Assembly: GCA_048938445.1 (NCBI GenBank)
Contig: JBHLME010000028.1
Span: 1-40,484 of the forward strand
Reading direction: 5' to 3'
DNA length: 40,484 bases
From: Promethearchaeota archaeon
GTDB taxonomy: Archaea > Asgardarchaeota > Lokiarchaeia > Sigyniarchaeales > SOKP01
Position numbers and translations under genes: made by a program. The notes beneath the pieces were generated by a model. The model was not told the DNA's origin. It saw only the letters and a program-made list of their open reading frames with translations, and did no database searches. Positions 8,517-18,307 of the stretch are shown one piece after another; position 1 is the first letter of the stretch, and each line of letters begins with the position of its first letter.

Positions 8517-8617
8517 GCGCCCGTGGTCTAGAAAATTAAGGATTTCGCTTAATTGGATAATGGTATGACGTCCGCTTGACGTGCGGAAGGTCGGGAGTTC
8601 AATCCTCCCCGGGCGCA
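8517..8617 (+). tRNA. tRNA-Val(GAC) with a ~27-29 nt intron in the D-loop (about 8532-8560); CCA not encoded
   Basis: Acceptor GCGCCCG/CGGGCGC-A; anticodon arm TCCGC-TTGACGT-GCGGA; T arm GGGAG-TTCAATC-CTCCC; insert with AATTAAG/CTTAATT hairpin between GTCTAG and TGGTATGAC; TTATAA about 26 nt upstream, T-run downstream. Confidence 0.93.
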
Positions 8618-14013: not shown

Positions 14014-14553
14014 ATGAAGGATCTTCATTACCGATTTAAAATAATTGTAGCAGGAGATGGTGGGGTGGGAAAGACTACTCTAATATATCGTTATGTAGAT
14101 GGTACATTTAAATCCAATACTAGCATGACAATTGGTATCCAGTTTCATCAAAAATTTATAGATCTTAATGATAATACTACATGTGAATTATTGCTGTGGG
14201 ATCTTGGAGGACAAGACCATTTTCGTGCTATTTTAAAGAGATTCGTTAAAGGTTCCCATGGAGCATTGTTAATGTTTGATTTATCAAGGATTATAACGTT
14301 GTTTAACCTTGATGAATGGATGGAACTTCTTAGCGACTCCGAACCAGATATTCCAATTGTCCTCATAGGCGGGAAAGCAGATTTACTAGAAAAGGGTGTT
14401 TTCCCTTATCAAGATAAACTACTAGAATTTAAAGAAAAATATAATTTTGAAAATGTTATATTTGTATCTTCAAAGACAGGAGAGAATGTTAATGAAGTAT
14501 TTGAATTTATAACTAAAGAAATTATTAAAAGTCATGATTCTAATGATAAATAG
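14014..14553 (+). CDS. Rab/Ras-superfamily small GTPase
   Basis: FKIIVAGDGGVGKTT (G1), TIG (G2), LWDLGGQ (G3), GKAD (G4 variant), SSKTGENV (G5); no C-terminal Cys prenylation motif. Confidence 0.93.
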   Translation: MKDLHYRFKIIVAGDGGVGKTTLIYRYVDGTFKSNTSMTIGIQFHQKFIDLNDNTTCELLLWDLGGQDHFRAILKRFVKGSHGALLMFDLSRIITLFNLDEWMELLSDSEPDIPIVLIGGKADLLEKGVFPYQDKLLEFKEKYNFENVIFVSSKTGENVNEVFEFITKEIIKSHDSNDK

Positions 14554-16121: not shown

Positions 16122-16170
16122 ACAGAAAAGTAATAATAAATTACTTTATCCTTAGTTTTATATAATAAAT

Positions 16171-16242
16171 ATAAGAATTCTTTTAATAATATAAGAATTC
16201 TTTTAATAATATAAGAACTCTTTTAATAATATTGAAATTCTT
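16171..16242. repeat. 20-bp tandem repeat ATAAGAATTCTTTTAATAAT, 3 copies plus a degenerate partial
   Basis: 16171-16190 and 16191-16210 identical, 16211-16230 has one mismatch; core palindrome AAGAATTCTT. Confidence 0.9.
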
Positions 16243-16302
16243 GATATTAAAAATCTAAATTTTTCAAAAAATTTAAAAATAAATTATTTTACTTTTTGTT
16301 TT

Positions 16303-16668
16303 ATGAGTGAATTAATATTTAATAAAAAGATAATTAAAGAAGCGGAAAATGACTTCAAAAAAATTAATTTAACAAAAATAGCAAGAGAAAACTTAGATCA
16401 AACTGCTCAAATATTTGCACAGTACTTACCCATTTCAGAGATGGCGCTGAAGGGATTCATTTTGTATTGTATGCAGGAATATCAAGTAAAAAATAAAATA
16501 GACCTATCTTCCTTTTATGATTCAACTCCAGAGGAAAAAAAGAAAATAATAGGCAGTATGGCGGAGTTATTACAAGCGCGTTTAACTAAATTACTCATTA
16601 AACCAGAACAAAAACCTATATTAGATAATGCTTTCAATGAAGTAATAAAATTTTTAAAAACTCTCTAA
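16303..16668 (+). CDS. Helical hypothetical protein
   Basis: 121-aa ORF with typical composition; shares motifs with 10469..10744. Confidence 0.75.
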   Translation: MSELIFNKKIIKEAENDFKKINLTKIARENLDQTAQIFAQYLPISEMALKGFILYCMQEYQVKNKIDLSSFYDSTPEEKKKIIGSMAELLQARLTKLLIKPEQKPILDNAFNEVIKFLKTL

Positions 16669-16795
16669 ATATTTGCTTTTTTAAAATATTATTAAAGAAT
16701 AGGATGATTAATTTTTTTTTTCAAAATTTCGAATACAATCAACTTAGTTATTTATAAAAAAATAGAAAACATTTTATATATGATAATATAAATAG

Positions 16796-16927
16796 TGCGC
16801 CCTCCGGGGATCGAACCCGGGTCACCTTCAACAATCAAGACGATTTGTCTCGTTTTAGGTTGGCAACCTGTTTTACCCTTTCAATGCTGATTTGAAAAGG
16901 GTATACTGGCCACTATACTAAGAGCGC
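16796..16927 (-). tRNA. tRNA-Gly(GCC) with two non-canonical introns (16871-16900 at position 27/28; 16827-16856 at 41/42); CCA not encoded
   Basis: Removing both 30-nt inserts gives a 72-nt cloverleaf GCGCTCT TA GTAT AGTGGCCA GTAT A CCAGG TTGCCAA CCTGG TGAC CCGGG TTCGATC CCCGG AGGGCGC A; both junction pairs form bulge-helix-bulge-like motifs. Confidence 0.92.
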
Positions 16928-17055
16928 AGTTTTGTGATATTTAAAATACATTAAAGAATTAAAATTTATTGTTTCTAATAACCTAGTTGGATCTTAAGTC
17001 GAGTAAACTTACATTTTATTAAGATTAAAAAAAGATAATATTAAAAGAGTAAATT

Positions 17056-18078
17056 TCATATAATTTGACTTATTACTTGTTTTATGGTATTATCTTCAAC
17101 GAATTTCTCGAGTTCTTGAAGACTTTCAGGCATTCCCTCTCTTACACCAACTTCTTTGCATTCTAGAAAAGACATTGCTGTTGCCATCTTACTAATTTTC
17201 TCAAGAGGATATTTGTTTAAGTATGAAACGAGGATTCCACTTAAAAATGCATCCCCTGCTCCTGTAGTATCTTGAACGTCACCTTTATAGACCGCACTGT
17301 TGACAATAGTTTTTCCATCAGAAATAATTGAACCGTTAGTGCCATCTGTAATTGAAATTAATTTAACACCTAAGTTTAAAAATTTATGTATAATTTGTGA
17401 CGTATCTACTTTACCGGTAAATTCTTGAGCTTCTTCTTTATTTAGTGACACTACGTCTGAATTGCCAATCAAGATTTTTGCCCATTTATAATTATTTTTT
17501 ATTATGGACATGCTAGGAGCAGCAAATACTATTCCGTTATTGTTTTTTGTGAGTGTAATAGCTTTTTCTATAGCTTTACAACCATTTTCACTAGTTAATG
17601 AAGTCCACGCAAAGGCTTTTATTCCTTCAAAAATATGTTCTTTTACATCAGAAGGTTGTAATAAGTTATTAGCTCCTTTATATGCTAGTATACTCCTATC
17701 TTTCCCCCATTCTGTTCGTAAAATTACTGAAAATGCTGTATTATCTTGACCTGTTTGAATGACATTAGATAAATCCACACCTCGCTTTTTTAAATCTTCT
17801 ATACATATATTTGCGGAGAAATCTTGTCCTAAAATACCAATATAAGCAGATTTTAATCCAACCATTGAACAATTTGCTGCGATATTTGCAGCTGAACCTC
17901 CTGGAACGAATGTTACGCCTTGAATATTTAATTTTCGACTATATTCTATGGCAGTATACTTTTTAATGATTTGTTCTCCATTTTTATCTCTATCAAACAA
18001 TTCGAATCGTAAGATATCATTTATATTTATCATGCAATCAAGAGTGCATGAACCAATAGTAATTAGATCTAAACTCAT
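17056..18078 (-). CDS. PfkB-family carbohydrate kinase
   Basis: PGGSAANIA, G.LGQD, LNKEEA, ITDGTNGS, DTTGAGDAFLSG; ATG 18078 follows GAGTGA. Confidence 0.92.
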   Translation of the reverse strand: MSLDLITIGSCTLDCMININDILRFELFDRDKNGEQIIKKYTAIEYSRKLNIQGVTFVPGGSAANIAANCSMVGLKSAYIGILGQDFSANICIEDLKKRGVDLSNVIQTGQDNTAFSVILRTEWGKDRSILAYKGANNLLQPSDVKEHIFEGIKAFAWTSLTSENGCKAIEKAITLTKNNNGIVFAAPSMSIIKNNYKWAKILIGNSDVVSLNKEEAQEFTGKVDTSQIIHKFLNLGVKLISITDGTNGSIISDGKTIVNSAVYKGDVQDTTGAGDAFLSGILVSYLNKYPLEKISKMATAMSFLECKEVGVREGMPESLQELEKFVEDNTIKQVISQII

Positions 18079-18307
18079 ATTCCTCACTCTATTATAAAAG
18101 TGTGATTAATCATCTGAATAAATTAAAAATAGAACCTACCATTAAAATAACTTTGCTAAAGTTTTTAATCTACTTAGCTCAAATATTTTTTAAATCTAGT
18201 AAGGTCAAAAAAGTAAAATAACACTTTCATAGAGAAAGGATTGTTTTAAATACAAAAAATCTCTATTTCTAAGAAGTGAAAAGTGAAAAATGAAAAATTT
18301 AAAGTCT

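Follow-up and report, generated by a model that had tools for sequence, protein, structure and literature searches.

A tRNA-Gly(GCC) gene of a Loki-type Asgard archaeon with three exons and two short introns

The window analyzed here, 40,484 nucleotides (nt) of contig JBHLME010000028.1 from the draft genome of a Promethearchaeota archaeon (assembly GCA_048938445.1), carries on its minus strand, at 16927-16796, a locus that is confirmed as a real tRNA-Gly(GCC) gene of a Loki-type Asgard archaeon, consisting of three exons and two short introns. An earlier note on the window, made from its letters, had proposed this identity for the gene, the positions and cut sites of its two introns and a 14-nt micro-exon with the anticodon, and the proposal is upheld by the tRNA finder ARAGORN, the tRNA model of Rfam, an exhaustive search over intron positions and shuffled controls. 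The anatomy of the gene, its splice-site motifs, the genes for the splicing enzymes and the conservation of the arrangement in relatives are established directly here. The preferred reading, to which a probability of roughly 0.9 is assigned, is that the locus is a functional, and apparently the only, tRNA-Gly(GCC) gene of the organism, and that both introns would be removed by the tRNA-intron endonuclease EndA and the exons joined by the ligase RtcB. The kind of gene, a multi-intron Asgard tRNA gene spliced at bulge-helix-bulge (BHB) motifs, is already known, and the locus adds a clean new example.

The five segments of the gene, all on the minus strand, measure 27, 30, 14, 30 and 31 nt. Exon 1 (16901..16927) holds tRNA positions 1-27, which comprise the 5' strand of the acceptor stem, the D arm, position 26 and the first base of the anticodon stem. 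Intron 1 (16871..16900), located between positions 27 and 28 (27/28), is 30 nt long and lies in a relaxed HBh' motif. The micro-exon, exon 2 (16857..16870), provides positions 28-41 in 14 nt, namely most of the 5' strand of the anticodon stem, the entire anticodon loop, in which GCC lies, and three bases of the 3' strand. Intron 2 (16827..16856), likewise 30 nt, interrupts the gene at 41/42 within a strict hBHBh' motif. Exon 3 (16796..16826) contributes positions 42-73 in 31 nt, which include the last two bases of the anticodon stem, a 4-nt variable loop, the T arm, the 3' strand of the acceptor stem and the discriminator A; the CCA end is not encoded.

When the exons are joined by their coordinates, the product is a 72-nt cloverleaf that ARAGORN names tRNA-Gly(gcc) and draws with a 7-base-pair (bp) acceptor stem (one G-U pair) formed by the 5' end of exon 1 and the end of exon 3, a 4-bp D stem, a CCAGG/CCTGG anticodon stem and a 5-bp T stem. 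This in-silico excision leaves all 21 stem pairs intact, and likewise the conserved bases, which include T8, A14, the GG of the D loop and the TTC of the T loop, and the 7/4/5/5-bp stems are accompanied by a 7-nt anticodon loop with GCC at 34-36. On a score for stems and conserved bases the gene reaches 27/27, whereas the maximum among 150 random 132-mers of the genome is 21/27. The identity elements of glycine tRNAs are the discriminator A73, C2-G71, G3-C70, C35 and C36, and all of them are present in the joined sequence. With relaxed filters, the Rfam tRNA model RF00005 matches the unspliced gene at 36.5 bits (gathering score 29; E-value 2.7e-6) with a 68-nt insert in place of the anticodon arm, and since this match spans exactly 16796-16927, the ends of the gene are confirmed independently. 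An exhaustive search for one or two introns, which was given no prior on position and scored cloverleaf pairs and motif quality, ranked the combination of 27/28 and 41/42 first.

Splice sites were assessed under a geometry in which the exon ends with the second base of a 3-nt bulge, pairing of the four bases ahead of each bulge makes the central helix (H), the inner helix (h') begins past the 5' bulge and the outer helix (h) begins past the 3' bulge. This geometry is validated by the canonical 37/38 introns of relatives, where the anticodon stem becomes the outer helix (H 4/4, h 7). The earlier note's rule of cutting after the second bulge base at all four sites holds, in that the same geometry fits those 37/38 introns and the CCAGG/CCTGG stem is rebuilt in the ARAGORN drawing. 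The motif letters are present as quoted there, GTAT-AC^C ... GTAA-AA^C for intron 1 and CAAC-CT^A ... GTTG-AA^G for intron 2. Intron 2 conforms to the strict hBHBh' definition. Its central helix CAAC/GTTG has 4/4 pairs and its bulges are CT^A and AA^G; positions 30-35 and 43-49 form the 6-bp outer helix, and the inner hairpin consists of 2 + 6 pairs that flank an A-A mismatch. Intron 1 falls outside that definition (H 3/4, h 0). Its central helix GTAT/GTAA has 3/4 pairs with a G-A mismatch, the 5' bulge AC^C is clean, the inner helix measures 8 bp, the 3' bulge is AA^C and the outer helix is absent; for these reasons, three of four central pairs and the missing outer helix, the intron is classed as a relaxed HBh' motif, which calls for at least one proper bulge between the central and inner helices and for which the outer helix is dispensable, rather than as a full BHB. 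Among dinucleotide-shuffled introns, the observed BHB score was matched by 13/5000 for intron 1, by 18/5000 for intron 2 and by 0/5000 for both together. Since relaxed motif classes are reported to occur by chance at many boundaries (preprint 10.64898/2026.10.13.758758), stronger support for intron 1 comes from its ortholog in a relative of another genus (genome G021), where the central helix has 4/4 pairs and the inner helix 10 bp.

The distribution of such introns was surveyed in the same family, a step that the earlier note had suggested for Asgard Gly(GCC) genes. Patterns anchored on the acceptor stem were run over 135 genomes, TCC and CCC genes were removed by eye, and 85 GCC genes from 84 genomes were kept; the other 51 genomes gave no match to the anchors. 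These genes were solved by the same exhaustive search, whose calls are uncertain by 1-2 bases, with a few that differ between runs. Fourteen of the 85 genes have no intron, 50 have one and 21 have two, and the introns occupy about 13-15 positions (9, 15, 17, 20, 22, 27, 28, 30, 36, 37, 38, 39, 41, 52 and 58). A call of 9/10 in genome G002 is, by eye, a 15/16 intron, and a 41/42 intron called in G003 from an alignment proved wrong, as the solver and the stem pairing put that intron at 37/38. A site at 27/28 or 28/29 is found in 12/85 genes from four genera, a 41/42 site in 3/85 genes from three genera (this genome, G021 and G098), and the pair 27/28 + 41/42 in 2/85, those of this genome and G021. 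When a strict pattern for the 41/42 arrangement was run, 2/135 genomes matched; G098, with a one-base difference in exon 3, escaped it. The equal length of the two introns, 30 nt each, had been remarked on in the earlier note; the length itself is correct, but it is the norm of the family, in which 59/60 introns of the first 43 Gly-GCC genes solved measure 28-33 nt. Its suspicion that 41/42 is an unusual position is borne out as to frequency, prior cataloguing being left aside, by the 3/85 genes and by metagenome contigs: none showed the 41/42 intron-junction pattern, and a pattern allowing a gap of 0-30 nt found 23 contigs, of which 19 are uninterrupted at the 41/42 junction and four are chance matches in GC-rich coding DNA. 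Two variants of the acceptor stem of tRNA-Gly(GCC), GCGCTCT... and GCGCTGC..., each occur in several genera, and genome G065 has one of each. The anticodon arm of the common Gly-GCC form is a perfect palindrome around C35.

The gene in G021 has its introns at the same two positions. Its intron 1 has a 10-bp inner helix unrelated in sequence to the 8-bp helix of this genome, and comparison of the two genes indicates that position and frame of intron 1 are kept while the helix is re-paired. The two 27/28 introns are correspondingly dissimilar, with 140/2000 shuffles reaching the similarity score for the full introns and 691/2000 for their cores, and the 27/28 intron of this genome has no significant similarity to any other in 59 comparisons, the best being with a 15/16 intron (10/1000 shuffles). 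Each of the three 41/42 introns, in this genome, G021 and G098, is 30 nt long, and they are mutually similar even when the hairpin core alone is compared. In pairwise tests 0/1000-2000 shuffles reached the similarity score, except for 1/1000 in one test, and there are pair-preserving changes, for example from A-T to G-C. As judged by these comparisons, the 41/42 intron is homologous in the three genera.

In the 4.63-Mb draft genome, ARAGORN lists one Gly-ccc and two Gly-tcc genes but no other Gly-gcc gene, and the acceptor-anchored patterns match only the gene described here. By a crude count, GGT and GGC (GGY) make up about 40% of the glycine codons in long open frames. The draft is estimated to be 96.5% complete with 8.2% contamination and is divided into 256 contigs. 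A rough census of tRNA candidates whose T arm is intact and whose acceptor stem is perfect, from which contig C215 was left out, returned 31, of which 21 are longer than 100 nt and six measure 132-139 nt; ARAGORN without introns lists only 12 tRNA genes in the genome minus C215. Most tRNA genes of this organism therefore appear, on the strength of this census, to be interrupted. On contig C215 (locus L228; 21.5 kb), 26 intronless tRNA genes that serve nearly all amino acids form an array at about 6.4-15.1 kb, with no Gly-GCC gene among them. The contig's G+C is 0.30, as in the genome, CCA is encoded in 3/26 of these tRNA genes and many of the acceptor ends are AT-rich. The array is flanked by genes for two CheR methyltransferases, a B12-binding protein with a URO-D-like protein, and radical SAM, ADH and MFS proteins, and it is only weakly similar to tRNA clusters of Bacillus phages; the host, a contaminant or a mobile element are candidates for its origin.

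The machinery that splicing would require is encoded in the genome. Two proteins of 202 and 204 amino acids, on contigs C26 and C80, each have the N- and C-terminal domains of the tRNA-intron endonuclease (PF01974 and PF02778). The 202-residue protein has its best match in the alpha subunit of Aeropyrum pernix EndA (E 1.8e-35), and its catalytic Tyr, His and Lys align with those of that subunit. In a HMMER alignment, its sequence KPR falls on the EKPR of the Crenarchaea-specific loop in 3p1z_B, so that the loop lysine is present; the conserved lysine of this loop is K44 in A. pernix, according to PMC5829648. The 204-residue paralog is best matched by the enzyme of M. jannaschii and has Ser at the position of the catalytic His. 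Classification of this EndA, proposed as a check in the earlier note, accordingly yields a catalytic alpha subunit with the loop lysine and a His-less, beta-like paralog. Asgard archaea are described in PMC5829648 as having an (alpha-beta)2 EndA with an L1 loop, and we infer from this description and from the two paralogs that the pattern would be that of a broad-specificity (alpha-beta)2 heterotetramer with the Crenarchaea-specific loop. The closest relatives of the EndA among GTDB representative genomes are nearly all from Promethearchaeota/Promethearchaeia, the best at 87% identity. Candidatus Lokiarchaeota resolves to Promethearchaeota in the NCBI nomenclature, and the earlier guess at the lineage is borne out by these relatives, which are metagenome-assembled genomes of Promethearchaeota. 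A gene for the RtcB ligase is also present (564 bits).

Maturation of the tRNA would begin with transcription of a precursor in which a leader and a trailer add to about 132 nt. EndA would cut this precursor at four sites, each one just past the second base of a 3-nt bulge. Intron 2 would be offered to the enzyme in a strict helix-bulge-helix-bulge-helix motif with positions 30-35 and 43-49 as the outer helix, and intron 1 in a relaxed HBh' motif composed of the 3' strand of the D stem and the intron's own hairpin. The enzyme would be a heterotetramer of catalytic alpha and catalytically dead beta subunits, and the loop lysine of alpha would allow relaxed motifs to be cut. RtcB would then ligate the 27-, 14- and 31-nt exons to the 72-nt tRNA, and CCA would be added later. 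The two motifs can be drawn on one molecule with no base in common, and they can coexist because the relaxed motif of intron 1 has no need for positions 30-35.

Several points weigh against this reading, and they are considered here together with the explanations that they would favor. That splicing occurs, where exactly the cuts fall and what the mature product is are themselves predictions from the DNA. The central helix of intron 1 contains the G-A mismatch, and mismatches flank its 3' bulge. The minimum free energy (MFE) structure predicted for the precursor (-46.2 kcal/mol, z -3.8) retains both the acceptor arm and the T arm, but in it G30-C35 pairs with the D loop and the 5' bulge of intron 1 is merged into a continuous helix; under nearest-neighbor energies, the conformer with both motifs reaches -33.3 kcal/mol, or -35.0 if forcing is limited to the motif helices, versus -46.2 for the MFE. 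It is possible that the gene is functional but that intron 1 is cut at 28/29, or that the introns are removed in a fixed order since their outer helices compete for positions 30-35, an explanation that is considered unlikely. The 28/29 register yields an identical mature sequence at a slightly lower score (H 3/4 and h' 4, versus h' 8), the solver favors it in several relatives, the MFE structure pairs G30-C35 with the D loop instead of exon 3, and the MFE structure computed after removal of intron 1 in silico contains the outer and inner helices of intron 2 around an open internal loop in which the central helix can form. The gene in G021 points the other way, as only 27/28 gives 4/4 central pairs and the 10-bp inner helix there, and so does the independence of the relaxed motif from 30-35. 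Folding is best taken as a caveat and as a hint of a possible order of intron removal; in these models it neither supports nor opposes splicing.

Alternatively, the locus could be a decaying pseudogene that has retained its insertions, with GGY codons decoded by an unassembled Gly-GCC gene or by another isoacceptor. The draft state of the assembly, in 256 contigs, means that a second, unassembled Gly-GCC gene is possible, and the MFE structure of the precursor lacks the splicing motifs. Decay would nevertheless be hard to reconcile with 21 intact stem pairs and conserved bases after excision, with two insertions that both lie in motifs seldom reached by shuffles, with an architecture kept in G021, where the central helix is repaired and the inner helix re-paired, and with the failure to find another Gly-gcc gene in the draft genome. 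In addition, as 21 of the 31 tRNA candidates outside C215 exceed 100 nt, interruption is the rule in this genome and not a sign of decay, and the pseudogene explanation is regarded as highly improbable. An assembly artefact or a contaminant contig would fit the estimated contamination of 8.2% and the contigs of sequencing runs, among which only those of the probable source run span the gene (with 0 differences); the runs of a second study contain fragments and a relative's gene with different letters between the exons. The contig has a G+C of 0.29 versus 0.296 for the genome, it carries Asgard-typical and housekeeping genes, for a Ras-family GTPase, deoxyhypusine synthase and PGK, the neighboring PfkB protein groups with that of the same-genus genome G002 (support 100/99), and the gene of G021 is an independent assembly of the same architecture, all of which make an artefact or contaminant scarcely credible. 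A functional, spliced tRNA-Gly(GCC) gene is consequently retained as the preferred reading.

The gene had been expected in the earlier note to escape standard scanners, and this is true of the two finders that were run, ARAGORN with default settings and Rfam at the gathering threshold. ARAGORN in default mode calls no gene in the precursor or in either singly spliced form, and on the whole window it reports one 'Val' gene elsewhere and does not call the tRNA-Gly locus, where Rfam at the gathering threshold has no match either. With introns allowed, ARAGORN makes spurious Phe(aaa) and Met(cat) calls on the unspliced and singly spliced forms. The tRNA-Phe(aaa) with a 35-nt intron was rejected, as it ignores the GCC loop and is without proper stems. 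The finders thus overlook or misname the only GGY decoder found in the genome, which would consequently seem to be without an essential tRNA. A second interrupted tRNA gene lies in the window at 8517-8617 on the plus strand, where a perfect 7-bp acceptor stem spans 101 nt. About 29 nt are inserted after G15 in its D arm, in a BHB register assigned by eye only, and their removal gives a tRNA-Val(gac) that ARAGORN calls from base 1. In the raw window, ARAGORN makes a truncated call of a 71-nt intronless Val gene at 8546-8616, with its 5' end borrowed from the intron.

Multi-intron tRNA genes were held in the earlier note to be best known from Thermoproteales, a statement that needs widening, as they are now documented in Asgard archaea too (PMC11291895, 10.64898/2026.10.13.758758). 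In three genomes of Atabeyarchaeia/Freyarchaeia, 92-95% of tRNA genes are reported to bear introns, often non-canonical and multiple (PMC11291895). Goswami et al. 2026 (10.64898/2026.10.13.758758) put the number of intervening sequences per gene at 2.2 for three focal families and at 0.91 for other Asgard families, and state that tRNAscan-SE misses 30% of the intervening sequences in the focal families; their preprint also describes insertions in the anticodon stem and many gains on terminal branches, and it identifies no route by which the introns arrived. As those genes are described, the present gene resembles them in having several short non-canonical introns with BHB-type boundaries, insertions in the anticodon stem among them, in being missed by standard finders, and in intron positions that turn over fast between close relatives. 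It differs in lineage, as the two accounts center on Atabeyarchaeia, Freyarchaeia and Jordiarchaeia; the main text of the preprint has no mention of Gly, Lokiarch, Prometh or sliding, its per-gene supplementary tables being outside this search.

In the Thermoproteales, tRNA-Pro(UGG) of Pyrobaculum islandicum has introns at 25/26, 37/38 and 56/57 (PMC4090602), and the positions named in that paper, a list that ends in 'etc.', are 3/4, 20/21, 22/23, 25/26, 29/30, 30/31, 45/46, 53/54, 56/57 and 59/60, with neither 27/28 nor 41/42 among those spelled out. Genes of this order are described as having, like the gene studied here, two or three BHB/HBh' introns, exons of down to about 12 nt and an (alpha-beta)2 EndA with the specific loop. 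They belong to a different phylum, however, neither intron of the present gene is at the canonical site, and the spread of similar introns within a genome that is reported for Thermoproteales is not seen here, since no further copy of either intron was found in this genome (best non-self E 0.25). The (alpha-beta)2 EndA of A. pernix is reported to cut relaxed HBh' introns through its Crenarchaea-specific loop (PMC5829648). Intron 1 is like the substrates described for that enzyme in having one good bulge, a central and an inner helix and no outer helix, and the alpha subunit of this genome, as known from its sequence, keeps the Lys-Pro-Arg of the loop. A glycine tRNA assembled from three pieces with BHB-type junctions is also described for Caldivirga maquilingensis (PMC4090602), whose tri-split tRNA-Gly is made from separate genes joined in trans and split at or near 37/38 and 25/26, whereas the three exons lie here in cis within 132 nt.

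The gene for the PfkB-family kinase lies upstream of the tRNA-Gly gene at 17056-18087. An AT-rich box at 16941..16971 (minus strand), 14-44 nt upstream of the mature 5' end, is conserved in G021, G034 and G002, with 27/31 identical columns in the alignment with G021 and 30/36 in that with G034, the remaining intergenic DNA of those two being unalignable with that of this genome, and it is probably the TATA box and B recognition element (TATA/BRE) region of the promoter. A T-rich stretch read from the sequence at 16756..16770 (minus strand), about 25-40 nt past the gene, is possibly an archaeal oligo-T terminator. Six neighboring open reading frames (ORFs) encode PGK, a URO-D-like protein, deoxyhypusine synthase, arginine decarboxylase, one unassigned product and the Ras-family GTPase. 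The last, a Ras/Roc-family small GTPase gene at 14014-14553 on the plus strand, is of a type typical of Asgard genomes, which supports the contig as host chromosome. A 20-nt AT-rich unit is repeated in tandem about four to five times at 16148-16247, a short way upstream of the unassigned 121-amino-acid ORF at 16303-16668, which has no Pfam family. An origin of the introns at an integration site was considered and found no support, as the window contains no second copy of the 3' part of the tRNA gene and there is no integrase or nuclease among the six neighboring ORFs.

PfkB is also upstream of the Gly-GCC gene in relatives in which that gene is intronless or has introns at 38/39, 39/40, 15/16 + 37/38, 37/38 + 52/53 or 27/28 + 41/42, and this synteny indicates that the differing intron configurations are states of one orthologous locus. 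A maximum-likelihood tree of PfkB was built from 35 rows, with ten partial rows skipped and seven flanks having no ortholog. In this tree, each carrier of the 41/42 intron pairs with a genome that is without it: this genome with G002 (support 100/99), G021 with G034 (100/100, branch lengths 0.009 and 0.008) and G098 with the intronless G015 (100/99). Over 1272 nt upstream, G021 (locus L004) and G034 (locus L009) show 96.5% identity, and over 1685 nt with the gene included 92%; their exons are identical while the introns differ, being at 27/28 + 41/42 in G021 versus 15/16 + 37/38 in G034. A 104-nt insertion or deletion separates the two in the intergenic region between PfkB and the tRNA gene. 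The mature tRNA of this genome differs at 3-5 positions from GCGCTCT-type genes of other genera and at 10-18 from the GCGCTGC-type genes of its congeners, and its upstream flank aligns end to end with that of the congener G002. Since the mature sequence is nearer to other genera, the flank is nearer to G002 and the 41/42 intron is patchily distributed, the intron-bearing alleles are discordant with their flanks. Such discordance would fit either an old polymorphism with repeated loss or exchange by recombination.

Whether introns also change position at this locus is suggested by a further comparison of the sister pair. The anticodon-side introns of G021 and G034 align as if the four bases ACCT had been shifted across the intron, that is, as a 4-nt slide between 37/38 and 41/42. 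In the sister pair, the similarity implied by the slide was reached by 7/2000 shuffles of the full intron and by 34/2000 of the hairpin core. Across 126 comparisons for the slide, mean z was -0.19 with two values above 2.5, and across 138 controls it was -0.28 with none above 2.5, so that the case for the slide is weak. One type of intron end would fit both 15/16 and 27/28, since both strands of the D stem read GTAT-A, but as intron 1 has no significant similarity elsewhere, relocation from 15/16 to 27/28 has no sequence support beyond this GTAT-A frame. A search of the literature for sliding of archaeal tRNA introns found nothing relevant. A tentative reading, more doubtful than probable, is that the intron-bearing tRNA alleles at this locus are old or exchangeable haplotypes whose introns may move from one register-equivalent site to another.

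The gene contributes a Loki-type case to the Asgard tRNA genes that are heavily interrupted, one in which the anticodon loop is carried on a 14-nt exon. The comparative data may outweigh the gene itself, as they concern one orthologous locus with about 13-15 intron positions in 85 genes and a homologous intron scattered across the tree. Near-identical genomes with wholly different intron pairs are material for testing the gain, loss and movement of introns and, if the tentative reading of exchangeable alleles and relocating introns is true, G021 and G034 would represent a natural experiment on how BHB introns arrive and move, a question that the preprint 10.64898/2026.10.13.758758 leaves open.

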